From NCBI GenBank assembly GCA_964510585.1, contig CAZECW010000139.1:3333-35332 (forward strand): a stretch of DNA of 32,000 bases, given 5' to 3'. A program made the translations under genes and the position numbers. Source of the stretch: an uncultured archaeon (lineage in GTDB: Archaea > Asgardarchaeota > Jordiarchaeia > Jordiarchaeales > Jordiarchaeaceae). Below the pieces are notes generated by a model. It was not told the DNA's origin and searched no databases. It saw only the letters and a list, made by a program, of their open reading frames with translations. Below, piece by piece: positions 1 through 22,352 of the stretch. Each line of letters opens with the position of its first letter. Position 1 is the stretch's first letter.

Positions 1-418
1 CCGGATTATCCTCGTAGTCGTTTCTAATCATCCATTTTATGGCATCACTCATAGTTCTTACGTGGGTAATTATGCCTGTAGATATTGCTATGGTGTCACC
101 CTCAGGACTATAAAGGGTAAAGCACAGTTCTCCTAACTCTTGGACAATGGGGGAGGCAGATATATTCATAGATGTTTCCCGAGCACTAACTAGGGAGCCT
201 CTAATGAGCGCAAATATCCGCTCGTAAACAAGTGGGTTCTGCTCTTTATATTCTAATTTTTCTAGTCCATAGTATCTCCCCGTTTTCCGGAAGAGTTCCT
301 CGGATTCCTTCAACATTTCTTTTAGGGTTTTACCGTTCCATCCAATTTTTCTGGTTCTCGAGCCTTCTACTCCCTCAATCTCCACCAATTGTGGTTCTCT
401 AACAAAACTTGGCACCAT
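1..418 (-). CDS. acxB: Acetone carboxylase alpha subunit (hydantoinase B/oxoprolinase family), 5' part only; runs off the window start
   Basis: Not in the ORF track; translated by hand from ATG at 418: MVPSFVREPQ...GKTLKEMLKESEELFRKTGRYYGLEKLEYKEQNPLVYERIF...ARETSMNISASPIVQELGELCFTLYSPEGDTIAISTGIITHV...WMIRNDYEDNPG. This closely follows the AcxB N-terminus as I recall it (ARETAKKIAASPIVEQEGELCFTLY...STGIIIHV). The start lies 3 nt after the acxA stop. Confidence 0.9.
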   Translation of the reverse strand, partial: MVPSFVREPQLVEIEGVEGSRTRKIGWNGKTLKEMLKESEELFRKTGRYYGLEKLEYKEQNPLVYERIFALIRGSLVSARETSMNISASPIVQELGELCFTLYSPEGDTIAISTGIITHVRTMSDAIKWMIRNDYEDNP

Positions 419-9477: not shown

Positions 9478-9501
9478 AGTTAATTTCGGAGCGTGAAATA
9501 T

Positions 9502-10452
9502 GTGTCTGTCTTAACTGCTTGGAGAGAAAAATGTATCATAACCTGTGCCCTTACGGGATCCGCTACTTTTCCCTCCCAGACACCCTACCTACCCATAACA
9601 CCGGACCAGATATCTGACGAGGCAAAAAAGGCCTGCGACGCAGGCGCAGCAGTAGTCCACGTCCACGTGAGAGACCCCAAAACCGGCATGCCCACAGCCG
9701 ACCTAGGCGTGTGGAGAGAAACCCTAACAAAAATAAAGTCAAAAACAGACGTAATAGTCTGCTGCACAACAGGAGGGGGAGCCGGAATGACCCCCGAACA
9801 AAGAATAGCGGTGGTTCCAGAATTCAAGCCAGAAATGTGCTCCTTCAACGTGGAATCAATGAACTTCGCAGTATTCCCCATAGCGGAAAGAATTAAGGAG
9901 TGGAAATATCCCTGGGAAAAACCAGTAGTGGAAATGAGTAAGGGACTGATTTTCCAGAACAGCTTCAAAGACCTCGAAGTATTCTCCAAAACAATGTATG
10001 AAAACAACGTTAAACCCGAACTTGAGATTTATAGCACGAGTGGCATCTGGAATGCGGGAGCCATGCTCCGCTTTGGATGGCTTAAATTCCCCCTGCACAT
10101 GCAATTCGTCCTAGGGGTGCTCGGGGGCACAGGAAACACACCATGGGAACTAATACACTTCTATGACGAAGCCGCCCGACTCTTCGGCACGCAAAACTTC
10201 ACCTGGTCAGTGATCGGAATCGGGTACCCAAGAGAGTTCCACTTGGGAGCCATGGCGGCAATAATGGGAGGACATATAAGAGTTGGGCTAGAGGACAACA
10301 TTTACATAGCCCATAGAGAGTTGGCCAAGAGCAATGCAGAACTAGTCGCCAAGATGGTTAGGATAGTCAATGAACTGGGAAGAGATGTGGCCTCACCTGA
10401 CGAAGCAAGGAAAATGCTGGGACTAAAAGGACTGGACAAGGTCAACTACTAA
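9502..10452 (+). CDS. Beta-keto acid cleavage enzyme (BKACE/DUF849, 3-keto-5-aminohexanoate cleavage family), paralogue 1
   Basis: IITCALTG, Zn-binding HVH, TTGG and HIRVGLEDN (Glu ligand/Asp). Start GTG 9502 chosen because it aligns with the paralogue's ATG; the track starts at 9493. Confidence 0.92.
   Translation: MSVLTAWREKCIITCALTGSATFPSQTPYLPITPDQISDEAKKACDAGAAVVHVHVRDPKTGMPTADLGVWRETLTKIKSKTDVIVCCTTGGGAGMTPEQRIAVVPEFKPEMCSFNVESMNFAVFPIAERIKEWKYPWEKPVVEMSKGLIFQNSFKDLEVFSKTMYENNVKPELEIYSTSGIWNAGAMLRFGWLKFPLHMQFVLGVLGGTGNTPWELIHFYDEAARLFGTQNFTWSVIGIGYPREFHLGAMAAIMGGHIRVGLEDNIYIAHRELAKSNAELVAKMVRIVNELGRDVASPDEARKMLGLKGLDKVNY
9564..9770 (+). repeat. 207-bp near-identical tract shared with 10935-11141
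   Basis: Codon-by-codon comparison of the two BKACE genes shows a single mismatch (9678 C versus 11049 T) in 207 nt. Confidence 0.95.
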
Positions 10453-10488: not shown

Positions 10489-10872
10489 ATGAAAACTGTC
10501 AGTATTTAGAACAACAGTTGAAAGTCTTTTTGGAGGCGGAGGCTCTACAAACATGTCGCAATAAAAGCAAAACCCATGGTGTTCTTACCAGTTTTCCTAT
10601 TGAAGGGATTAGTCTGAAGCCCAATTAATTCCTATAAGAGTTCTCTGATGCAACCCCTAATTTTCCATACAAGCGTCTTATGAAACCATCACTCTTGCCC
10701 TGTTGATAGATTTTACAATTCGCGTAGAACAAGGGGGAAGAGATTTTCGGGTAATGCGGTGAATGATTACTTTGAGGAGCCAGCAAAAGTTCGATGCAAG
10801 GTACCAATAAATTAATATTTGTCATATTCTTCTAAAAATATGGGTTGGAAGAATTTTTGGAGGTGTGAAGAA

Positions 10873-11841
10873 ATGTCATTTTTAACTGCTTGGAGAGAAA
10901 AATGTATCATAACCTGTGCCCTAACTGGGTCAGTTACTTTTCCCTCCCAGACACCCTACCTACCCATAACACCGGACCAGATATCTGACGAGGCAAAAAA
11001 GGCCTGCGACGCAGGCGCAGCAGTAGTCCACGTCCACGTGAGAGACCCTAAAACCGGCATGCCCACAGCCGACCTAGGCGTGTGGAGAGAAACCCTAACA
11101 AAAATAAAGTCAAAAACAGACGTAATAGTCTGCTGCACAACTGGGGGAGGAGCAGGAATGACAGCCCAGCAGAGAATAGCGGTGGTTCCAGAATTCAAGC
11201 CAGAAATGTGCTCCTTCAACGTAGAATCAATGAACTTTTCAGTGTTCCCACTCGCAGAGAGAATAAAGGAGTGGAAAACTGACTGGGAAAAGCCCCTAGT
11301 AGAGTGGAGTAAGGGAATGATCTTCCAGAACTCATTTGCAGACCTTGAAGTGTTTGCCAAAACTATGTATGAAAACAATGTTAAACCGGAACTTGAGATT
11401 TACAGCAGCAGTGGCGTCTGGAACGCGGGTGCTATGCTCCGCTTTGGATGGCTTAAATTCCCCCTACACATACAATTCGTCCTAGGAGTATTGGGAGGAA
11501 CGGGCAACACACCCTTTGAATTGATGCACCTTTACAACGAGGCTAGCCGACTCTTCGGCACACAAAACTTCACTTGGTCAGTAATCGGAATAGGATACCC
11601 GCAAGAATTCCACCTAGGAGCGATGGCGGCAATAATGGGAGGCCACATAAGAGTGGGCATGGAAGACAACATTTATGTGGGTTACGACCCCGTGAAGAAG
11701 GAGCGTATACTTGCAAAGAGCAACGCTGAACTGGTTGCAAAGATGGTTAAGATAGTTAACGAATTGGGAAGAGATGTAGCTTCACCTGACGAAGCAAGGA
11801 AAATGTTGGGACTAAAGGGATTAGACAAGGTCAACTACTAA
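10873..11841 (+). CDS. Beta-keto acid cleavage enzyme (BKACE/DUF849), paralogue 2
   Basis: Same motifs (HVH, HIRVGMEDN) and a GGAGGTG RBS before ATG 10873 (track starts at 10819). About 24 substitutions plus a 6-aa insertion relative to paralogue 1, by hand count. Confidence 0.92.
   Translation: MSFLTAWREKCIITCALTGSVTFPSQTPYLPITPDQISDEAKKACDAGAAVVHVHVRDPKTGMPTADLGVWRETLTKIKSKTDVIVCCTTGGGAGMTAQQRIAVVPEFKPEMCSFNVESMNFSVFPLAERIKEWKTDWEKPLVEWSKGMIFQNSFADLEVFAKTMYENNVKPELEIYSSSGVWNAGAMLRFGWLKFPLHIQFVLGVLGGTGNTPFELMHLYNEASRLFGTQNFTWSVIGIGYPQEFHLGAMAAIMGGHIRVGMEDNIYVGYDPVKKERILAKSNAELVAKMVKIVNELGRDVASPDEARKMLGLKGLDKVNY
10935..11141 (+). repeat. Second copy of the 207-bp tract
   Basis: Offset of 1371 nt from 9564-9770; one mismatch. 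Confidence 0.95.
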
Positions 11842-11911: not shown

Positions 11912-12697
11912 TTATAGTTCCCTTAGGGTTCCTTTTAGGTCTATTCGGGTTCTTATTACTTGGAGTTCTTCTTTTGTGGGTGGCTCTGTTTCTGGAACGT
12001 CATCTGGAATTATGAGTTGGAATCCAGTGTTGTTTTTAACCTCTTCGATCGATACTCCTGGGTGTACTGATTTTAGGCGCATTCTTTTGGTCTTTTCTTC
12101 GAAGTCCATTATACAGAGAGGTGTTAATACATATTTGGGGCCTCCTCCAGGTAGGCCTAGTTTTTTTCTGGAGTTTCCCCCGTCTCCCCAGCCTACGGCG
12201 GTTATGTATTCGCATTTGTCCACGAAAATCATTGGGTGGTGCCTCTCAGAGTAGATATAGTAGCGGCCCACGTAGGTTGTTATTGTTGATTGTCCAATGG
12301 CGCCTGGTCCTCGGAACATCAATTTTGGGTACTGTCCGCCAATGCCGAGCAGGTTTATGTTTCCATATTTGTCTATTTGGAGGCCTCCGAAGAAGCTGAC
12401 ATCATACCTTCTTATAGTATCCCAGAGGTGCTCATATTCTGGTACTTCTTCGCAGTATTTGAATCCAGAGTAGTCTGTGACGAATTCAAAACTTTCTATT
12501 TGTTTCACGTCTGAGAAGTTGGCGCGGTAAAACTGTAGCCAGCGCATGTTTGGTGCGTGTGTTAGGTGTGCGAGGAGTACGCCTGCTCTACACGCGGGTA
12601 GGTTGGCTCCTATTAGTACTGTTTCGCCGTCTTTGATTTCTCGGGAGATGAAAGCAGCTAGGAGCTCTCTTATTGAGTAATCTTTGTTTCTGCTCAA
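11912..12697 (-). CDS. Class I CoA-transferase beta subunit homologue (GctB/CatJ/IpdB family)
   Basis: FFGGLQIDKYGNIN, RGPGAIG, SVHPGVSIEEVKNNTGF and TEPPTKEEL motifs; AGGTGA RBS; downstream of the alpha subunit. Confidence 0.85.
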   Translation of the reverse strand: MSRNKDYSIRELLAAFISREIKDGETVLIGANLPACRAGVLLAHLTHAPNMRWLQFYRANFSDVKQIESFEFVTDYSGFKYCEEVPEYEHLWDTIRRYDVSFFGGLQIDKYGNINLLGIGGQYPKLMFRGPGAIGQSTITTYVGRYYIYSERHHPMIFVDKCEYITAVGWGDGGNSRKKLGLPGGGPKYVLTPLCIMDFEEKTKRMRLKSVHPGVSIEEVKNNTGFQLIIPDDVPETEPPTKEELQVIRTRIDLKGTLREL

Positions 12698-12710
12698 TTT
12701 TTTTCACCTT

Positions 12711-13601
12711 CTACCATCTGTATAGAGAGAGGAGTTTCTTCATACCGATTACTTCAAGATACTCTTCGTGTGAATTTGGTTCAAGGATGTATTTTTTGAG
12801 GTACTGGTTGAAGGGCTCAGGGTTTCCCTTTGTGTAAGCCTTGGCCGCCTCCACGTACTCTTTGAGGTGTTCCCTGTCTAAATCGTAGAATCCATCGCTT
12901 GAGAAGGGGTGGGAACCATATGGGGTGGGCACCACCGCATCAACCCCGTAAATCTTTGTTAGGTGTGGGTTTCTCTTTATGTCTTCGTTAGAAACCACTT
13001 TTTCTACTTGAAAGACGCATTTTTTGGAGGCTCTCGCCATTAGAATGTCTGCGTAGGTGTTTCCCACGTACTGTATGTTGCCATATGGGTCGCTCCAGGA
13101 TGCGTGAAGTATGGCTACGTCGAGTTCCAGTGCGGGGACAGCTAGCAATGTTTGTCCCTTTATGGGGTCTTGGAAGTATTTTAGATCGGGGTTAATGTCG
13201 GGCAGGCAGGTGCCAACGCCGCCTAGCCAGGGTAGGAAAGGTAGCCCCTCGGCCGCGGCTCTTAGTGCGGTGCATAGGATTGCTTCGTCGCACTCCCACA
13301 TTTGAATGGTGCCGTCCACTACTGCTTTTCGGAAGAATGGACCTATGGGTGCGAGTGATTCTCCTCCCACGTAAGCAGTGGCCACCTTCTTTGCGACACC
13401 CGCTCCGATCATCAAGTCAATTTCTAGTCCCGCTGCGGGTGAGCCTACTACTGTCAGGTTTTTTACACCGTTCTTAATGATTTGGCGAATTATGGCCATG
13501 GGGTGATTTGCAGTTAGAAGGCCCCCGATGCCTACGGTCATACCGTCCTTTATCATTGAGGCTGCCTCTCTTACACTCATAATGACTTCTTTTCTGGTCA
13601 T
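12711..13601 (-). CDS. Class I CoA-transferase alpha subunit homologue (GctA/CatI/IpdA family)
   Basis: IKDGMTVGIGG...HPMAIIRQI, ECDEAIL...RAAAEGLPFLP, LDVAILHA..SDPYGN and VDAVV..PYGSHP motifs. Confidence 0.87.
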   Translation of the reverse strand: MTRKEVIMSVREAASMIKDGMTVGIGGLLTANHPMAIIRQIIKNGVKNLTVVGSPAAGLEIDLMIGAGVAKKVATAYVGGESLAPIGPFFRKAVVDGTIQMWECDEAILCTALRAAAEGLPFLPWLGGVGTCLPDINPDLKYFQDPIKGQTLLAVPALELDVAILHASWSDPYGNIQYVGNTYADILMARASKKCVFQVEKVVSNEDIKRNPHLTKIYGVDAVVPTPYGSHPFSSDGFYDLDREHLKEYVEAAKAYTKGNPEPFNQYLKKYILEPNSHEEYLEVIGMKKLLSLYRW

Positions 13602-15025: not shown

Positions 15026-15587
15026 AAAAAACACCTCCAACTCAAAGAATAAATCTATGTATTATAATCTCCAACCATCTTGGGGCTGTTAATCGTTGAA
15101 ATTAGAGAAAACCTGTTTTTCTCCACTAAGGAATACATTTTCAGTGATAATCAACATATTTATAATTTTTGGAGCAAAGAGGGACAAAATGCAGCTTCTC
15201 CACATTTGTACCGAGCAAAACTAATCCGTTGCGTATAACCGGCCAAAATGTGGGTAGTAGGAGGAAGCGAAACTTACTGACAGGCCTCATATAAATAGTT
15301 TTTTTGTCGATAGTTTTATAAAGAAAACAAATCCAGAGAAACGAAATCCAGAGCATCGTAAATATGAAGTGAAGCGTTACCCCTTTAAATGTGAGGCGTT
15401 AGTGGCTACAGTGATTCCTCCACCAAAAAATCACACGCGAAAAATGGTGACCAAAATTCGTTAAGACGCTGCGAACAGTCTTTTGATTAAACCTTAGAGT
15501 GGAGGAAAACAAAGGCGGAAGACCCAAATAAGCATTCAAACAAAGAATGGATATTTCGTACTATTCTGGATTTAAACCAACTTGGGT

Positions 15588-15625
15588 GAAACCCTATTTT
15601 GAAAAATCAAAACGGGTAGGGTTTC
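15588..15625. promoter_or_regulatory. Nested inverted repeat 42 nt upstream of the thiolase-fold operon
   Basis: GAAACCCTA-TTTTGA-AAAA-TCAAAA-CGGG-TAGGGTTTC forms a 15-bp stem with a 4-nt bulge. Function unknown. Confidence 0.4.
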
Positions 15626-15667
15626 CAGAGGCTGAATAAATTGAATTCCTTTGTAGAGGTTTAAATT

Positions 15668-16810
15668 ATGGATAAAGAAGTAGCCATTGTGGGAGTAGCA
15701 CAAACCAAGTATGAGGAAGAAAAGGCGGATTTACCCTACTCTGAACTAGTTTTCGAAGTCGTCAAAAAACTCCACGACGAGCTGGGAATAACTAAAGACG
15801 ACGTGGGAAGCATAATAACTAGCTCCAACGATTTCAACGACGGAAGAACAATAGCCAGCATGGCCATTCAGGATGCTTTAGGAGCCGTGGGAAAATCGGA
15901 GTCCCGAGTATCGGGAGACGGAGCATTCGCCTATGTCTACGGAGTAATGAGAATACTAGAAGGAACATACGATACAGTGATGGTGGTTTCACACTGCAAG
16001 TGTTCCGAGTCAAACATTTACCTTGTAAACAATTCTATTTTTGAGCCCTACTACCAGAGATGGCTGGGACTAGACCAGGTCTCTTCGGCGGGATTAATGG
16101 CGAACATGTACTCACACAAGTATGGAATCACCCAAGAACAAGCGGCAAAAGTGGCAGTAAAAAACCGCAAAAACGCTCTAAACAATCCCTACGCACATCT
16201 ACAAAAAGCAGTTACAGTCGACGAAGTCCTAAATTCCAAAATGATGGCCTACCCCCTCAAAGAACTAGATCTACCGCCACTCTCGGACGGAGCTGTAGCA
16301 ATGCTCCTAACAAACAAAGAGAAAGCCAAAAAATATACAGACACACCAGTGTGGTTTAAGGGCCACGGCAATTGCACCGACGCCTACTACCTTGGACACC
16401 GCAACATGACCGACCTCATAGGACTAGAACTAGCAGCAAGAGAAGCCTACAAAATGGCGGGAATAAAAAACCCCATGAAGGAAATCGACGTAGCAGAAAT
16501 CTATGAAGCGTTCACCTACCACGAACTAATGAATTATGAAGCCCTAGGACTATGCAAAAAAGGCGAGGGAGGAAAACTCATCGACAGCGGACAAACAGAA
16601 ATGAACGGAACCCTCCCAGTAAACCCCTCAGGAGGCGTACTCTCAAGCAACCCCTCCATGGCCAACGGACTAGTTCGTGTAGCAGAAATCGCACTGCAAC
16701 TAATGGGCAAAGCCGAAAAAAGACAGGTGAAAGACGCCAAAATTGGACTAGCCACAGGAATGAATGGAATCTGCTCCCAAGGAAACTGCGTAATCATATT
16801 AGAAGCATGA
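15668..16810 (+). CDS. ltp4: Thiolase-fold protein lacking the catalytic Cys, Ltp4-like
   Basis: LHDELGITKDDVG, SSNDFNDGR, DVAEIYEAFTY, NPSGGVLSSNPSMANGLVRV and SQGNCVIILE parallel actinobacterial Ltp4 as I recall it. There is no CxS nucleophile (ESRVSGDGA) and no GHP His. Confidence 0.72.
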   Translation: MDKEVAIVGVAQTKYEEEKADLPYSELVFEVVKKLHDELGITKDDVGSIITSSNDFNDGRTIASMAIQDALGAVGKSESRVSGDGAFAYVYGVMRILEGTYDTVMVVSHCKCSESNIYLVNNSIFEPYYQRWLGLDQVSSAGLMANMYSHKYGITQEQAAKVAVKNRKNALNNPYAHLQKAVTVDEVLNSKMMAYPLKELDLPPLSDGAVAMLLTNKEKAKKYTDTPVWFKGHGNCTDAYYLGHRNMTDLIGLELAAREAYKMAGIKNPMKEIDVAEIYEAFTYHELMNYEALGLCKKGEGGKLIDSGQTEMNGTLPVNPSGGVLSSNPSMANGLVRVAEIALQLMGKAEKRQVKDAKIGLATGMNGICSQGNCVIILEA

Positions 16811-16829
16811 AAATGAGGAGATGAAAAAT

Positions 16830-17990
16830 ATGGTAAAACAAAAAGTAGCAATTGTGGCAACCGGCCAAACAAAACACAGAAGCCGAAGAAGAGACGTCAA
16901 CATATCCGAAATGATTTATGAAGCAGTAAAAATGGCCCTAGATGAAGCCCAACTCACACCCAAAGACATAGACGCCGTCGTTATTGGAAACATGGACCAC
17001 TTCGAAGGAATAAACTTCTCCGAAATGTGGACCGGAATAGAATCCGCACCTGGATACCTCAAACCCGTAGTAAAAGTAGCCACAGGGGGAACCACCGGAA
17101 CCTCCCTAGCAGCATACGGATACTACGCAGTAGCCTCTGGAATGTATGACAAAGTACTAGTAGTGGGATGGGAAAAAATAAACGAAGGAGGAGCCACAAC
17201 CGGAATAGTAACAGCCTTCGACGCCAGATGGGAAAGACCCGCCCTAGCCGGGGCACTAGGCCCCCTCGCTCTGATGGCTAGTATGTATATGTGGGAATTT
17301 GGAGTAACACCAGAACAAGCCGCAAAAGTAACAGTCAAAAACAGAAGAAACGCAGCAAATAATCCCTTCGCACACCTGCAACAACCCAACATGACAGTAG
17401 AAGAAGTGATGAACTCACCAGTAATATCGTGGCCCCTAAGACTCCATGATTGTTGCCCGCAGAGTGAGGGTGCTTGTGCGATTGTTTATGCGGGTGAGGG
17501 TGTGGCTAGGAAGATTAGTGATAATTTGGCGTGGGTTAAGGGTGTGGACACGGGGCACTATTATACTTATGGTGGCGATGATGTGATGCATAAGTATCCT
17601 GCGGCCAAGATTGCTTCTACCAGGCTTTACAAGAAGGTGGGTATTAGGAATCCGTTGAAGGATTTGGATGTGGCTGAGGTTTATGAGCCGAGTAGTTGGG
17701 CGGAGCTTATGTGGACTGAGGCTTTGGGTTTCTGTGAGTATGGTCAGGGTGGTAAGTTGTTGGATGAGGGTGTTACTGAGATGGGTGGTGAGTTGCCAGT
17801 GAATCCTTCGGGCGGTGTTATTGCGACGAATCCTATTGGTGCTACGGCGCTTATTCGTGTGGCTGAGGCTGCGATTCAGGTTAGGGGCCTGGGTGGTAAG
17901 CGTCAGGTTCCTGATGTGGAGTTGGCGTTGGCTCATGGTTTCGGTGGTAGTGTTTGGGCGGATCTTATGATTTTGGGTAAGGAGCCTTGA
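16830..17990 (+). CDS. ltp3: Thiolase-fold protein lacking the catalytic Cys, Ltp3-like
   Basis: TGQTK, DHFEGI, AHLQQPNMTVEEVMNS, AEVYEPSSW and NPIGATALIRVAEAAIQV parallel Ltp3. The nucleophile position reads ATGGTTG. A GAGGAG RBS favours ATG 16830; the track starts at 16821. Confidence 0.75.
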   Translation: MVKQKVAIVATGQTKHRSRRRDVNISEMIYEAVKMALDEAQLTPKDIDAVVIGNMDHFEGINFSEMWTGIESAPGYLKPVVKVATGGTTGTSLAAYGYYAVASGMYDKVLVVGWEKINEGGATTGIVTAFDARWERPALAGALGPLALMASMYMWEFGVTPEQAAKVTVKNRRNAANNPFAHLQQPNMTVEEVMNSPVISWPLRLHDCCPQSEGACAIVYAGEGVARKISDNLAWVKGVDTGHYYTYGGDDVMHKYPAAKIASTRLYKKVGIRNPLKDLDVAEVYEPSSWAELMWTEALGFCEYGQGGKLLDEGVTEMGGELPVNPSGGVIATNPIGATALIRVAEAAIQVRGLGGKRQVPDVELALAHGFGGSVWADLMILGKEP

Positions 17991-18004
17991 TTTGAGGTGA
18001 TTTT

Positions 18005-18490
18005 ATGAGTGAGAAGAAGGAAGAGCCTTTTACTATAAATTGGCTTACTGATTTGCCTTATCGTTATGCTTTGGGACCCGTTGCATCGAAGTTCTTTAGG
18101 GTGCTTAAGGAGTCTGGTAAGTTACTGGCGATTAAGTGTAGGAAGTGTGGGAAGGTGTTGTTCCCTCCGAGGTCTGTGTGTGCGGACTGTTTGGTGGAGA
18201 TGACTGTGGATGATATGGTTGAATTGAGTGGTGAGGGTTCGCTGGATGGTTTTACTGTGGTTAATTATCCTTTTGTGGATCCTAATACTGGTGAGACGAG
18301 GCCTTTTCCGTATGGTTATGGTGCGATTAAGTTGAAGGGTACAGATACTTGGATGCTGCATTTTGTCGATGAGACGGATCCTGGGAAGATTAAGCCGGGT
18401 ATGCTGGTGAAGGCGGTGATTAAGCCTAAGAATGAGCGGAAAGGTACTTTAGAGGATATACCCTACTTTAGAGCGGTTGAGAAGAAGTGA
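18005..18490 (+). CDS. DUF35 family Zn-ribbon/OB-fold protein
   Basis: CRKC...FPPRSVCADC, GxLxxFTVV and PFPYGYGAIKL motifs; GAGGTG RBS. Confidence 0.9.
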   Translation: MSEKKEEPFTINWLTDLPYRYALGPVASKFFRVLKESGKLLAIKCRKCGKVLFPPRSVCADCLVEMTVDDMVELSGEGSLDGFTVVNYPFVDPNTGETRPFPYGYGAIKLKGTDTWMLHFVDETDPGKIKPGMLVKAVIKPKNERKGTLEDIPYFRAVEKK

Positions 18491-18515
18491 GATTTCAATC
18501 TGTGGAGGTTTTGTT

Positions 18516-18956
18516 GTGAGTGAGGATAAGTATTTTCATGGTAGGATTAGGGTGCCTTATAGGCATGTTGCTGGTGCTTATGCTGGTCGGTTTATTCAGG
18601 AGATTGGCAATAATAAGAGGATTATGGGTGTGAAGTGTTCCAGATGTGGTAAAGTGTATGTTCCTCCTAGGATGGTTTGTTTTGCGTGTTTTGAGAAAAT
18701 GAAGGAATGGGTCGAAGTTGGCAAGCAAGGTACGGTTAAGGGATTTACGGTGGTTAACTATTCGACGCCAGTTATGCCGTTGAAGCCCCCCTTTGCTTAT
18801 GGGATTATTGAGTTAGATGGTTCAAATACTGGTTTTGTGCACATCATTAAGGAGGGTGACCCCAAGAAGCTGAAGGTTGGCATGCGGGTTGAGGCTGTTT
18901 TCAAGAGCAACCCAGAGGGCAACATTTTGGACATTGAATACTTCAAACCAGTATAG
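18516..18956 (+). CDS. DUF35 family Zn-ribbon/OB-fold protein, second copy
   Basis: CSRC..VYVPPRMVCFAC, GTVKGFTVV, PFAYGIIELDG and GMRVEAVF motifs; GGAGG RBS before GTG 18516 (track starts at 18477). Confidence 0.9.
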   Translation: MSEDKYFHGRIRVPYRHVAGAYAGRFIQEIGNNKRIMGVKCSRCGKVYVPPRMVCFACFEKMKEWVEVGKQGTVKGFTVVNYSTPVMPLKPPFAYGIIELDGSNTGFVHIIKEGDPKKLKVGMRVEAVFKSNPEGNILDIEYFKPV

Positions 18957-19116
18957 TATGCTTCCCCTTTTTCATTTTTTATTTAGATTTTTTGTTTTAG
19001 GGATTGTTTCCCAATTATGTTTGTTTGACGCTCTCTGCGACCAAAAATAGGGGGATTTTTTCGCCAGCAATTAGGTGTAATTTGATTCTCTTCTGAGTAG
19101 GGTAGTTTTTTCATTT

Positions 19117-19803
19117 TTAGGCGATTGTTTTCCACACGAATCTTTGACTCCCAAGAATTAGCAATAGTACTGCTAACAGTATTGGGCTAATTGGGAACAA
19201 GGGTGTGATGAATTGTAGAGTTCCTGTTAGCATAAGTAGGAGTATTACTATTACTGCAAGGAGCGAGAATTGGGCTGCTGTTAGTGTGTAGACAGCTAGT
19301 TTTTCTTTGGGGGTTCCGTTTCTTAATATTTCGCGCATTCTCTTTTTGGCTTCTCCATAGGTTTTGTAGCGGTTTGAGGACGGTAGTCTCCAAGTTCTGA
19401 GCGTGAATAGTAGGTCTCGAAATTCAGCCTCTTTTAAGAGTCTCAAAAGGACCCAGTTGTGTAAATCAATTATTATTAAGGAGAGTGCAAGGGTGAAGAT
19501 TAGAAGTAGTAGCGTCATTTCGGTTATTGTGTTAATTTTGAATAGTGTGATTCGGTTGGAGAGGTACGCGATTCTCACGGTGAAGGTGGTGGCTTCAAGA
19601 TCCCATGGTCCGAAGAGGTTCTGGTAGTATGAGGGTGCGCTGGAAAAGAGGAGAAGCAATTCCAGGGGTATACTAAAAACAGTGGAGAGCGAGAGCCAAG
19701 TGTAGGTGAGAAAGAGGATTGCTCAAGGAATCCATGATAGAAATCCTATCATTACCATTCGTTTGAACGCATTATTTACCTCTAATTCCTCTTCTAGAAA
19801 CAT
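19117..19803 (-). CDS. Multi-pass membrane protein with an in-frame TGA at 19723-19725; possible pseudogene
   Basis: The track ORF (19117-19659) extends upstream in frame as hydrophobic sequence. From ATG 19803 (TAGGAG upstream) it reads MFLEEELEVNNAFKRMVMIGFLSWIP*AILFLTYTWLSLSTVFSIPLELLLLFSS... Confidence 0.6.
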
Positions 19804-19970
19804 TTGATTAGCTCTCCTAGACGCACGCTATTTTTATTCTTCTTTGAGTATAAAAAGTTATTTTGGGTTTGAATGAGACTGGTTTTAGAAAATTTTATAA
19901 CAATGTTTTAACCTAGATTTAGGTTAATGTGTTTCCATAAGACTACTAAAAAGGGTAGGAGTAGAGTGTT

Positions 19971-20984
19971 TTGGTTTCTAAAGGAGAAGAGATGCTAAGA
20001 GAAGATATTGAGAGGGTTCAGGAGCAGAGACTGCAGAGAGAAGTGAAGTACGCTTATAATTATTCTGAGTTTTACAGGAAAAAATTCGCTGATGCTGGGT
20101 TGAAACCTGATGACGTAAAGAGTTTGGATGATTTGTCGAGGATTCCTGTTACCTCCAAGGAGGAGGTTCTATCCAAGTTTAGTGACAGTGATCCTTTTAG
20201 TGGTCGGCTTTGTGTTCCCGTAGATAAGTTGTGGTATATAATTTTACCTCATGAAGCCACGTTGTCTGGCAGACCACTCTACACTGCATATACTTATAAT
20301 GATCGCCGGGTTCTTCTGGAACAGTTGACGCGGTTCTTCCGAATGCTTGGTGTTGGAGCTAAGGATTTAGTTATGACTTCTGGTCAATCTTGGGAGCTTA
20401 CCCCAAGAGTTCTGGAGAGCGCATTCACTATTCAAGAAACGGTTCAGGATAGGTTAGGGTTCATCAACATGCCTTTGGAGGCTTCCCTAGTTTTTATTGA
20501 TATGCCTAGAGCCATTTATCTCGGGGAGCAACTTAAACCGAGAATTTTTTTCACCCTAGTATCATACTTTGATCAGGTCACTCAGGGGATAAAGAGTCAA
20601 AAAAAGGTGCCTAAGGATGTTTTTCAGCCGGAAATAATTGTTCTAAGAGAGTTGATGGATGATATGCGGCTTACAGATGAAAAGCAAAAGGAGTACAAAA
20701 GTGAGTGGGGTAGTGAGTTTTATAGAATGTTGGACGTACAGGATACTGCTTTTCTTGCCATGGAGTGCCCTGAGCACAATGGACTACACGCATGGGAGGA
20801 CATGTTCATCATAGAGGCATTGAGTAATGGAGAACCAGTGGCTGAGGGTAAGAGAGGAAAGTTGACAATAACTAATCTCTGGTCAGAGGCTACACCAGCG
20901 ATAAGGTGGCAAACAGATTACGAAGTGACTTTGGACAAAAAGCGCTGCAAGTGTGGAGGAAACCATCTGAGAATTAAGCTATGA
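19971..20984 (+). CDS. Degenerate phenylacetate-CoA ligase (PaaK)/F390-synthetase family protein lacking the P-loop and C-terminal domain
   Basis: PaaK-like N-terminus (SEFYRKKF...DLSRIPVTSKE) and ECPEHNGLH.WED.F, GKLTITNL, CKCG motifs. The P-loop reads PHEATLSGRP, and the ORF ends right after CKCG. The start may be ATG 19992. Confidence 0.75.
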   Translation: MVSKGEEMLREDIERVQEQRLQREVKYAYNYSEFYRKKFADAGLKPDDVKSLDDLSRIPVTSKEEVLSKFSDSDPFSGRLCVPVDKLWYIILPHEATLSGRPLYTAYTYNDRRVLLEQLTRFFRMLGVGAKDLVMTSGQSWELTPRVLESAFTIQETVQDRLGFINMPLEASLVFIDMPRAIYLGEQLKPRIFFTLVSYFDQVTQGIKSQKKVPKDVFQPEIIVLRELMDDMRLTDEKQKEYKSEWGSEFYRMLDVQDTAFLAMECPEHNGLHAWEDMFIIEALSNGEPVAEGKRGKLTITNLWSEATPAIRWQTDYEVTLDKKRCKCGGNHLRIKL

Positions 20985-21002: not shown

Positions 21003-22352
21003 ATGTTTATGGTAGATTGGAGAAAATACTGGAACGAGCCAATTGAGACTATATCCAGAAAGGATCTAATGGAACTGCAATTTAAAAGGTTAAAGAAGCA
21101 GTTAAACAACATTTATCATAACTCCTCATATTATAGGGGAGTGATGAGAGAAAGTGGGATTTCGCCAGATGATATAAAGTCATTAGGAGATTTTACTAAA
21201 TTTCCAGTTACCTACAAGGATTCAGTGAGAGAATTGATAAATGCGGGTGACCCCTTCGGCGGCCTATTATGCGTTCCATTTGAAGACATAAAATCTATTT
21301 ATTCCACAACGGGCACTACAGGAATACCTTCAATACATGCTCAGACCAAAGAGGATCAAGAGTACAGCGCAGAGCAAACTGCTAGGCTAACTTGGATGCA
21401 GGGATTTAGGCCAGGAGATGTCCTTTTTTGGCCCCCCGTGAGATGGAACGGGTTCATCTTCGGCGTCACCCCGGGACTAGAAAGAATAGGGGTAGTATCA
21501 ATCACAAATATTTTGTATCCTTTACCCAACTATGCAGACAAAATGGTCTACGCTCTTAAACACCTTCGCCCTGACGTAATGGCAGTACCAATAGTGATAT
21601 TTGACGGGTTTCTAGAATCCTGCAAAAGACTTGGGGAAAAACCCGCTGAAATATGTGAAAGCTTGAGAGCAATTTCAATTGGTTATGGAGATGTTTTAAC
21701 AAATAGCTATCGGCAAAAGTTAATAAAGGAGGCGAGGCTAGAGCCGGAGAAGATTTTTAGTGGCGGTGGGGCAGCGGATACCATGATTCATTTGGCGGAG
21801 TGTGAAGTACGTGAGGGCACTCATATTTGCGAGGATCTTTATTTGGCTGAGATTCTAGATCTGGATACCAAGGAGCCTGTGGGGGAAAATGAAAGGGGCG
21901 AATTGATTCTATCGAATCTTTATATGAGAGGCACCCCACTTATAAGGTGGGGTAGTGAGGATATTTCCACCTTCAGTAGGGAAACTTGTAAGTGTGGTAG
22001 GACTCATGGTAGAGCAACTTGGATTGGTCGAACAGGTTTCCAGCTTAATGTTATGGGTAAATGGATTCTTCCTTTGGATGTTGATGATCTGTTTATAGAT
22101 GTGCCGGAGGCTGCGGGTACTCCCTTTACACTTTTCAAGTATAAGAAGGGCGTGATGGAGAAGCTGAAGATGAAGATGGTTTACGATGGAAGCAAAGGTT
22201 TAACCAAAGAGGAGTTCAGAGCGAAGGTTTCTGGAATTATTAAGGAGAAACTGGGTGTTGAAACCGATATTGAAATAGTGGATTCCATAGACGATTTGCC
22301 CAAAATTGCCCACAAATATAAAAGAGTTGAAGATCTCACCAAAGAAAGTTAA
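21003..22352 (+). CDS. Phenylacetate-CoA ligase (PaaK)-family adenylate-forming CoA ligase
   Basis: YSTTGTTGIP P-loop, GELILSNL, TPLIRW, CKCGRTH...IGR and terminal KYKRVEDL (A10 Lys). Substrate not determinable. Confidence 0.87.
   Translation: MFMVDWRKYWNEPIETISRKDLMELQFKRLKKQLNNIYHNSSYYRGVMRESGISPDDIKSLGDFTKFPVTYKDSVRELINAGDPFGGLLCVPFEDIKSIYSTTGTTGIPSIHAQTKEDQEYSAEQTARLTWMQGFRPGDVLFWPPVRWNGFIFGVTPGLERIGVVSITNILYPLPNYADKMVYALKHLRPDVMAVPIVIFDGFLESCKRLGEKPAEICESLRAISIGYGDVLTNSYRQKLIKEARLEPEKIFSGGGAADTMIHLAECEVREGTHICEDLYLAEILDLDTKEPVGENERGELILSNLYMRGTPLIRWGSEDISTFSRETCKCGRTHGRATWIGRTGFQLNVMGKWILPLDVDDLFIDVPEAAGTPFTLFKYKKGVMEKLKMKMVYDGSKGLTKEEFRAKVSGIIKEKLGVETDIEIVDSIDDLPKIAHKYKRVEDLTKES

Follow-up and report, generated by a model that had tools for sequence, protein, structure and literature searches.

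A 32,000-nt stretch of DNA from an Asgard archaeon of hot springs, a member of the Jordarchaeia / 'Freyarchaeota' group (contig CAZECW010000139.1 of a 96%-complete genome; the whole stretch is hereafter called the window) carries a four-gene cassette, A-B-D1-D2, in which two thiolase-fold proteins devoid of the thiolase catalytic residues are followed by two DUF35 proteins. With a rough probability of 0.55, this cassette encodes a heteromeric non-thiolytic retro-aldol lyase passing acetyl-CoA, and possibly a beta-keto acid, to the beta-keto acid cleavage enzyme BKACE. Complex formation, chemistry, direction and substrate are read here from the observed gene set, residue pattern, phylogeny, synteny and a gene fusion.

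Composition of the Cassette

The cassette consists of four open reading frames (ORFs) of the plus strand at positions 15668-18956, with intergenic gaps of 10, 14, and ~25 nt. Subunit A (P0001, 15668-16810, 380 aa) and subunit B (P0002, 16821-17990, 389 aa) both have an SCP2-type thiolase fold, A being the Ltp4-side and B the Ltp3-side paralog, and both match Pfam Thiolase_N together with Thiolase_C_1 (E 2e-38 and 9e-33). D1 (P0003, 18005-18490, 161 aa) combines a C4 zinc ribbon with an OB fold and, like D2 (P0004, 18516-18956), to which it is 39% identical, matches Pfam zf-ChsH2 and OB_ChsH2_C, i.e., DUF35. ORFs and Pfam domains thus agree with the initial annotation, made from the DNA letters alone, which had described two thiolase folds and two DUF35 proteins. 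Its forecast that automatic pipelines would mislabel the thiolase-fold genes also came true, as orthologs are named 'acetyl-CoA C-acetyltransferase' by JGI and, in one NCBI record, 'propanoyl-CoA acyltransferase'.

The mechanical ORF of D2 begins at TTG 18477, but its start is most likely GTG 18516, giving a protein of 146 aa, because a ribosome-binding site, GGAGGT (18505-18510), precedes this codon and the lengths of the orthologs (146-152 aa) agree with it; conservation begins past residue 15 of the long ORF. D1 orthologs come after B in Asgard loci. Three Lokiarchaeia-type genomes encode a fusion of D1 with D2, a single protein of 319-332 aa (L064:6846-7805, L066:6851-7849, and L067:6851-7849) with D1 as the N-terminal half, so that the N-to-C order equals the order of the separate genes.

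Loss of the Thiolase Catalytic Residues

The genome contains 22 further paralogs with an SCP2-type thiolase fold, to which A and B were aligned, as they were to solved thiolase structures. Ten of these 22 paralogs are canonical: HD and GHP are present in all ten, the nucleophilic Cys (ENACxSG-like) in nine, and the full HDCF motif in seven. At the nucleophile position, the loop is deleted in A (VSG---DGAF) and a Gly is found in B (ATGGTTG). The HDCF-equivalent motif reads YEAF in A and YEPS in B, the third position thus being Ala and Pro, respectively, with an Asn ~50 residues downstream; this Asn belongs to the GHP equivalent, which reads S-NP in A and T-NP in B with a one-residue deletion in each. 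In the alignment of B with the SCP2-thiolase 6hsj, 'ielHDCfs' corresponds to 'aevYEPss' and 'kgHPlga' to 'at.NPiga'. Both the missing nucleophilic Cys and the Asn (SNP, TNP) in place of the GHP His, as read by the initial annotation, are therefore recovered in the two proteins from alignments to paralogs and solved thiolases.

The residues expected of an SCP2-type thiolase, namely the nucleophilic Cys, the HDCF His/Cys, and the GHP His, are all absent from A and B. Judged from sequence, thiolysis is excluded for both subunits, with no Cys and with His replaced by Tyr and Asn. Furthermore, the ~ten canonical Cys/His thiolase paralogs of the genome, nine of them with Cys, leave no thiolase gap to fill.

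The HDCF motif of SCP2-thiolases corresponds to YDHF in Ltp2 and YDCY in Sal, two aldolases in which the Tyr is the catalytic base, while the catalytic acid is Tyr344 in Ltp2 and Cys304 in Sal (PMC12329534). The initial annotation had placed a Tyr of both A and B at the position of the Ltp2 catalytic Tyr. The equivalence of the positions is correct (PMC12329534), and the Tyr is a stable feature of B, whereas in A it is lost in many orthologs, as detailed below.

An Asymmetric Pair of Subunits

Constraint on the two subunits was compared within the orthogroup of the window (22-24 orthologs, 72-99% identity) and in a wider survey of 75 usable A-B loci from many phyla. In 22 orthologs of B, the motifs ATGGTTG, Y-E-P, and TNPIGAT are invariant, and across the 75 loci the Tyr is found in 74 and the Asn in all 75; the Ltp2/Sal base Tyr is thus present throughout the YEPS motif of the orthologs and nearly everywhere beyond them. 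The nucleophile position of B is occupied by Gly in at least 64 loci, Cys in ~7, and Ala in 2. In contrast, the Tyr position of A is Y in 13, S in 6, and F in 4 of 24 orthologs, differing even inside the genus, and at its two His positions at least 11 residue pairs are found across the 75 loci (Y/H 30, Y/N 12, H/N 8, S/N 5, C/N 5, among others), although A is otherwise strongly conserved outside the active-site positions. This asymmetric constraint at the His positions points to B as the site of catalysis and to A as a degenerate partner. B is therefore probably the catalytic subunit, with Tyr288, Asn337, and a Gly for the Cys, and A is probably an obligate partner, either catalytically degenerate or auxiliary. 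A and B are adjacent in 67 of the 75 loci, and the branching inside the A clade parallels that inside the B clade, which indicates that the cassettes were duplicated and moved as units.

The structural model of B (pLDDT 85.9) has the five-layer thiolase fold and matches SCP2-type thiolases and their DUF35-partnered relatives with TM scores of 0.81-0.87, e.g., 0.86 for the zebrafish SCP2-thiolase; Ltp2 and Sal rank behind true thiolases among these matches. Two less confident loops, 61-75 and 123-128, carry invariant B-specific motifs and may become ordered only within the complex. A prediction of the complex of A and B with the partner D2 scored 0.74 against 0.84 for a control with B replaced, and supports neither outcome.

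Three B-type paralogs of the genome (contigs C38, C193, and C12; L017, L016, and L015) have a Cys at the nucleophile position (ATCGTTG) while both His are lost (YNP, TNP). This Cys-keeping sub-clade of B is also found in Dehalococcoidia, Myxococcota, Methanolliviera, and others, and its chemistry may differ from that of the Gly majority.

Relation to the Ltp3/Ltp4 Module

Among known systems, the closest is a module of actinobacterial C24-branched sterol side-chain degradation, which consists of Ltp3 (Rv3523), Ltp4 (Rv3522), and the tandem-DUF35 protein Rv3521. From genetic evidence, Ltp3-Ltp4 is described as a heteromeric aldol-lyase acting after carboxylation and hydration, which releases acetyl- or propionyl-CoA and leaves a carboxylate (PMC6678751, PMC6593523). 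By its structure, this carboxylate is a beta-keto acid. As references, the trees (27 and 89 sequences) included annotated actinobacterial plasmid copies of the module along with the canonical thiolases of the genome itself. On the Streptomyces clavuligerus plasmid NZ_CP065257, a tandem-DUF35 protein (339 aa) is followed by a PRK07937 member (550 bits for a cut-off of 419) and a PRK08313 member (713 for 514); on the Tsukamurella plasmid NZ_LR134446, the same trio adjoins EchA19- and FadD19-like genes, a P450, and a steroid 3-ketoacyl-CoA thiolase.

A thiolase-superfamily tree had been proposed as a check by the initial annotation. The present trees unite all B-type proteins with the Ltp3-like references in one clade (99/97; SH-aLRT 95) and all A-type proteins with the Ltp4-like references in another (94/84; SH-aLRT 95 and 81), although the Ltp4 branch is very long (1.55). 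Nine of the ten canonical paralogs form a separate clade (99/97; SH-aLRT 98), and the tenth is attached less securely. A tree constrained to have the Ltp4-like proteins within the B clade is rejected (p-AU 0.012), in a test that was post hoc and involves this long branch. With respect to NCBIfam models, B scores 381 bits with the Ltp3 family PRK08313 / NF006180, its best family by ~120 bits but under the cut-off of 514, and A scores 200.7 bits with the Ltp4 family PRK07937 / NF005924, which ranks ninth among the matches of A and has a cut-off of 419. Because both remain below these cut-offs, A and B are, as far as sequences tell, relatives within a wider A/B superfamily and not Ltp3/Ltp4 orthologs. 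Identity of B to the Ltp3-like proteins, whose motif set it has, is 41-42%. That of A to the Ltp4-like proteins is only 27-30%, and by BLAST A is closer to the Ltp3-like ones.

Like the Ltp3-Ltp4-Rv3521 module, the cassette comprises one A-type and one B-type gene, two different and adjacent Cys-less thiolase folds, with two DUF35 units in a single operon. B and the Ltp3-like proteins have a small residue at the Cys position (Gly and Ala, respectively), Y-x-P, and x-NP with a one-residue deletion, while A and the Ltp4-like proteins share a remodelled D-G-A nucleophile region, which is three residues shorter in A. However, the actinobacterial module has one fused DUF35 gene before the thiolase folds, in place of two genes after A-B, and the Ltp4-like proteins have a His at the HDCF-His position (that of S. 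clavuligerus also at GHP) where A has Tyr and Asn. The contexts also differ, with a sterol cluster on one side and BKACE, a CoA-transferase-fold pair without catalytic Glu, and PaaK-like ligases in an anaerobic archaeon on the other. The arrangement had initially been said to mirror Rv3521-ltp4-ltp3; the same gene set, the trees, and the D1-D2 fusion in three genomes are in favor of this likeness, which is loosened by the scores below the cut-offs and by the 27-30% identity of A.

Other Thiolase-Fold Systems

Relation to Ltp2 and Sal was judged by PDB E-values, fold scores, and published motifs. TcLtp2-ChsH2(DUF35) (6OK1) and CtSal-CtShy(DUF35) (9MYR) have, as here, an SCP2-thiolase fold without the nucleophilic Cys, a Tyr as the first residue of the HDCF equivalent, and DUF35 partners, and the two enzymes match the B model with TM scores of 0.82-0.83. 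Unlike the present cassette, with its stand-alone DUF35 proteins and two thiolase-fold genes, they are homodimers and their DUF35 is a domain of the preceding MaoC hydratase. Moreover, Tyr344 of TcLtp2 and Cys304 of CtSal have no counterpart in A or B. Thiolases with a stand-alone DUF35 partner display the same pairing and are close structural matches (TM 0.84-0.87), but they retain the Cys, HDCF/HDAF, and GHP and are genuine thiolytic or condensing enzymes; no HMG-CoA synthase is found beside the cassette in the window. The top PDB sequence match (E 7e-51 and 4e-46) is ST0096 from Sulfolobus tokodaii (4YZO, 'thiolase-like protein'), which likewise has no nucleophilic Cys but in the alignments keeps both His (HD, GHP).

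Association With BKACE

Two tandem BKACE genes are located upstream of the cassette on the plus strand (9493-10452 and 10819-11841; Pfam BKACE, E 4e-100 and 4e-98). Their top NCBIfam model is the triacetate-cleaving 3,5-dioxohexanoate:acetyl-CoA acetone transferase, with 367 and 361 bits for a cut-off of 430. The genome has six BKACE copies, three of which adjoin A-B cassettes. Neighbors were counted as loci with a given gene within 7-9 kb, among 80 diverse loci and 23 Asgard ortholog loci. BKACE is present in 40/80 and 19/23, ahead of acyl-CoA dehydrogenase and AMP (CoA) ligase (each 34/80 and 11/23) and enoyl-CoA hydratase (29/80 and 16/23), while a 3-hydroxyacyl-CoA dehydrogenase (3HCDH) or short-chain dehydrogenase/reductase (SDR) occurs in only 9/80 and 2/23. 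Such few dehydrogenase neighbors would be expected if the keto intermediate is bypassed.

The association is closer still in two Leptospirales and one deltaproteobacterial metagenome-assembled genomes (MAGs), where a DUF35-BKACE fusion of 470-524 aa (L174:170-1582, L175:6550-8124, and L176:788-2230) directly follows A, B, and an SCP2-SCP2-DUF35 protein; its Pfam domains are OB_ChsH2_C at residues 74-138 and BKACE at residues 188-467. In every solved DUF35 complex, the adaptor links enzymes of consecutive steps (PMC12329534). Taken together, the fusion and this adaptor role suggest that a metabolite passes between the A-B enzyme and BKACE. The simplest candidate is acetyl-CoA, since BKACE needs it as a co-substrate. 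The literature searched makes no mention of BKACE with DUF35, nor of BKACE in Asgard archaea.

Proposed Function and Alternatives

In the proposed lyase, A and B would form a thiolase-fold heterodimer flanked by D1 and D2 in one complex, as in Ltp2-ChsH2(DUF35) and Sal-Shy(DUF35). Tyr288 of B, at the site of the catalytic-base Tyr of Ltp2/Sal, would deprotonate the 3-hydroxyl of a 3-hydroxyacyl-CoA, and Asn337, at the GHP-His position, would stabilize the acetyl-CoA enolate together with backbone amides. Cleavage of the C2-C3 bond would then yield acetyl-CoA and an aldehyde, a ketone or, if the substrate has a carboxymethyl branch as proposed for Ltp3-Ltp4, a beta-keto acid; the reaction could equally well run in reverse, as an aldol addition. 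BKACE would receive the acetyl-CoA, and perhaps the beta-keto acid too, giving acetoacetate and a shortened acyl-CoA. With a carboxymethyl-branched substrate, both products would be the two substrates of BKACE, although a source of such substrates is not evident, no biotin-dependent carboxyltransferase having been found in the genome.

Several observations weigh against this reading. In sequence, Ltp2 and Sal are farther from A and B (E 1e-24 to 1e-27) than ordinary thiolases are (1e-46 to 1e-51), and the Tyr common to B and Ltp2/Sal may be convergent. The proven aldolases have a second catalytic residue that is not present here, Tyr344 of Ltp2 aligning with Asn and Cys304 of Sal with Pro290, so that no general acid is assigned. 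The Cys-keeping sub-clade of B may mean that the ancestral chemistry of the family was not aldol cleavage, and the 'aldol-lyase' label of the A/B (Ltp3/Ltp4-like) group rests on knock-outs. As for the genomic context, the dehydrogenase counts rest on three query sequences, and in the window BKACE is unfused, with three opposite-strand genes standing between it and the cassette.

Among other explanations, it seems quite unlikely that A-B is a Cys-independent thiolase or Claisen enzyme, in which CoA would attack acetoacetyl-CoA or another 3-ketoacyl-CoA directly, with no acyl-enzyme, and which would fill the thiolase slot of BKACE/CoA-transferase operons of the lysine-fermentation type. BKACE and a Glu-intact glutaconate-type CoA-transferase do flank A-B in several operons of bacteria and in one of archaea, where no canonical thiolase is seen nearby, and DUF35 reportedly helps to form a CoA site in the archaeal thiolase/HMGCS complex, a solved structure found among the PDB matches. 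Nevertheless, we know of no thiolase-fold enzyme that works without the Cys nucleophile; here, both oxyanion-hole/base His are gone too, ~ten canonical thiolase paralogs are already available in the genome, and the CoA-transferase pair of the window has no catalytic Glu, so that acetoacetyl-CoA may not form. A decarboxylase appears improbable as well. In that case, the Tyr/Asn pocket of B would decarboxylate a malonyl-type or beta-carboxylated acyl-CoA, a weak activity of Cys-less ketosynthase relatives and of TbSLP, and feed acetyl-CoA or acyl-CoA to BKACE. With its Asn at the second His position, B resembles KAS III/CHS enzymes, which have a His-Asn pocket for decarboxylation. TbSLP, a TM 0.81 match that is Cys-less and has the Tyr in a YDCF motif, slowly decarboxylates malonyl-CoA, but an aldolase function is argued to be likelier for it, and Sal does not show this activity (PMC12329534). 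The carboxylated substrate is also without an obvious source, as no PF01039 was found in the 96%-complete genome and a biotin carboxylase is near only 2/80 loci.

Finally, both thiolase folds could be pseudo-enzymes that bind an acyl-CoA or a lipid and hold BKACE and hydratases via DUF35. All the classical catalytic residues are lost, A is clearly degenerate, and DUF35 adaptors bear BKACE or SCP2 domains in some bacteria; yet Tyr288, Asn337, and many polar residues of B are invariant across phyla at 48-56% overall identity, and orthologs from two Asgard classes are still 72-80% identical, which makes a wholly non-catalytic role very improbable.

Beyond the retro-aldol lyase itself, it can be speculated, though we regard it as doubtful, that the A-B/DUF35 lyase acts with BKACE as a module that shortens acyl chains in two steps, needing neither a thiolase nor a 3-hydroxyacyl-CoA dehydrogenase, and that this module is part of an anaerobic route, not yet described, for acids of isoprenoid, steroid or naphthenic type. 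The lyase would cleave a hydrated beta-branched or alicyclic acyl-CoA to acetyl-CoA and a ketone or beta-keto acid, after which BKACE would re-use the acetyl-CoA and convert the beta-keto acid to acetoacetate and a shortened acyl-CoA. Further members of the route might be the neighboring Glu-less, IpdAB-like CoA-transferase-fold pair, a ketone-carboxylase-like HydA/HydB, a BaiCD-like flavoenzyme, and a pyrrolysine-free MtmB homolog.

Implications

Thousands of genes from anaerobic bacteria and archaea are named acetyl-CoA acetyltransferases although their products are unable to be thiolases, and reconstructions of Asgard metabolism that count Cys-less pairs as thiolases of beta-oxidation or the mevalonate pathway are wrong at that step. 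The pattern of a catalytic B and a degenerate A offers a concrete hypothesis for Ltp3/Ltp4 in the sterol degradation of mycobacteria and rhodococci. That BKACE recurs beside the pair, and is fused in some bacteria, hints at a non-thiolytic shortening of acyl chains not described so far, which bears on the anaerobic turnover of branched or cyclic lipids. In addition, thiolase-fold aldolases are of interest as biocatalysts forming C-C bonds.

Distribution

Six loci of the genome combine one A and one B gene with two DUF35 genes, and two B-type genes stand alone. Orthologs of the window cassette (at least 72% identity) are found in 4/5 other genomes of the genus and in ~23/41 genomes of one Lokiarchaeia-type family, the identity between these two Asgard classes being 72-80%; none was found in other families among the 201 genomes of the phylum that were searched, where the next matches are paralogs at 56%. 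More distant B-type relatives (41-56%) are found in Syntrophaceae and other Thermodesulfobacteriota, Spirochaetota, Actinomycetota, Chloroflexota, Bacillota, Acidobacteriota, Methanobacteriota, Archaeoglobaceae, and Nitrososphaerales, usually in the order D2-A-B-D1. The DNA occurs in hot-spring metagenomes of several studies, and no RNA dataset is among the sequencing runs listed with it.

Neighboring Genes

The window and its closest relatives share one gene order: two BKACE genes come first, then, on the opposite strand, a CoA-transferase-fold pair and an LplA-like gene, then A-B-D1-D2, and last a PaaK-like N-domain protein and a PaaK-like ligase. In the Lokiarchaeia-type family, BKACE is directly before A or divergent from it, and the cassette lies among genes for acyl-CoA dehydrogenase, enoyl-CoA hydratases, an iron-containing alcohol dehydrogenase, SCP2, a phytoene-desaturase-like flavoprotein, and an FNR-like protein.

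The glutaconate-CoA-transferase-fold pair (11912-13601, minus strand; Pfam CoA_trans) matches GctAB (1poi) and then IpdAB (6co6, 6con) in the PDB. Its beta subunit reads FYRANF where GctB and the homologs of bacterial A-B operons, which retain the residue, carry the catalytic Glu (VESG, FEAGG), and in its alpha subunit C-D-E is aligned with M-D-E of IpdA. The pair may thus be an IpdAB-like retro-Claisen hydrolase instead of a transferase, as these residues suggest, and its candidacy as the acetoacetate-activating enzyme was dropped because the beta subunit has no catalytic Glu.

Downstream of the cassette on the plus strand, an N-domain-only PaaK-like paralog (19971-20984, 337 aa) is followed after 18 nt by a full-length PaaK-like CoA ligase (21003-22352, 449 aa). 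Both score far under the NCBIfam PaaK cut-offs, their look-alikes being clusters of the phenylacetate-CoA ligase family; the pair is kept with the cassette in L029 and L080 and missing in L079. At the left edge of the window, ~13 kb from the cassette, a Hydantoinase_A/Hydantoinase_B pair is encoded on the minus strand (2-2557 and, continuing on the contig, G000:C139:1849-3516), with acetophenone carboxylase ApcC and caprolactamase alpha as top NCBIfam models, both far below the cut-off. As neither the 80 diverse nor the 23 Asgard loci were found to have a HydA homolog at a distance of up to 7-9 kb from the cassette, a link between this putative ketone carboxylase and the cassette is speculation.

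An Atu/Liu-like route, with a biotin carboxylase acting before cleavage, was rejected as a general explanation, a carboxylase being near the cassette in 2/80 loci and no PF01039 carboxyltransferase having been found in the 96%-complete genome. One of these two loci, from a Bacillota MAG (L120:9856-12884), has such an Atu/Liu-like content, with D2-A-B-D1 followed by acyl-CoA dehydrogenase, biotin carboxylase, carboxyltransferase, enoyl-CoA hydratase, and BKACE.

Non-coding Regions and Base Composition

Rfam and tRNA scans of the window, including the region upstream of the operon, gave no match. This region, 627 nt (15041-15667) between the operon and the divergent LplA-like gene, is 90-92% identical within the genus, and two islands in it (~15116-15174 and ~15303-15368) are 85-89% identical even in a Lokiarchaeia contig, the second one holding a TTTATAAA box. 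The islands may have a promoter or regulatory function. Between D2 and the PaaK-like genes, the gap (18957-19970) is ~800 nt longer than in the Lokiarchaeia relative and only ~77% identical within the genus, compared with 98-99% for the flanking proteins; a minus-strand ORF in it (19117-19659, 180 aa) encodes a very hydrophobic product with no Pfam match. Between the 16-18 kb and 18-20 kb bins, the AT skew passes from +0.21 to -0.14 and the GC skew from 0.10 to 0.33, a sharp shift across the operon.

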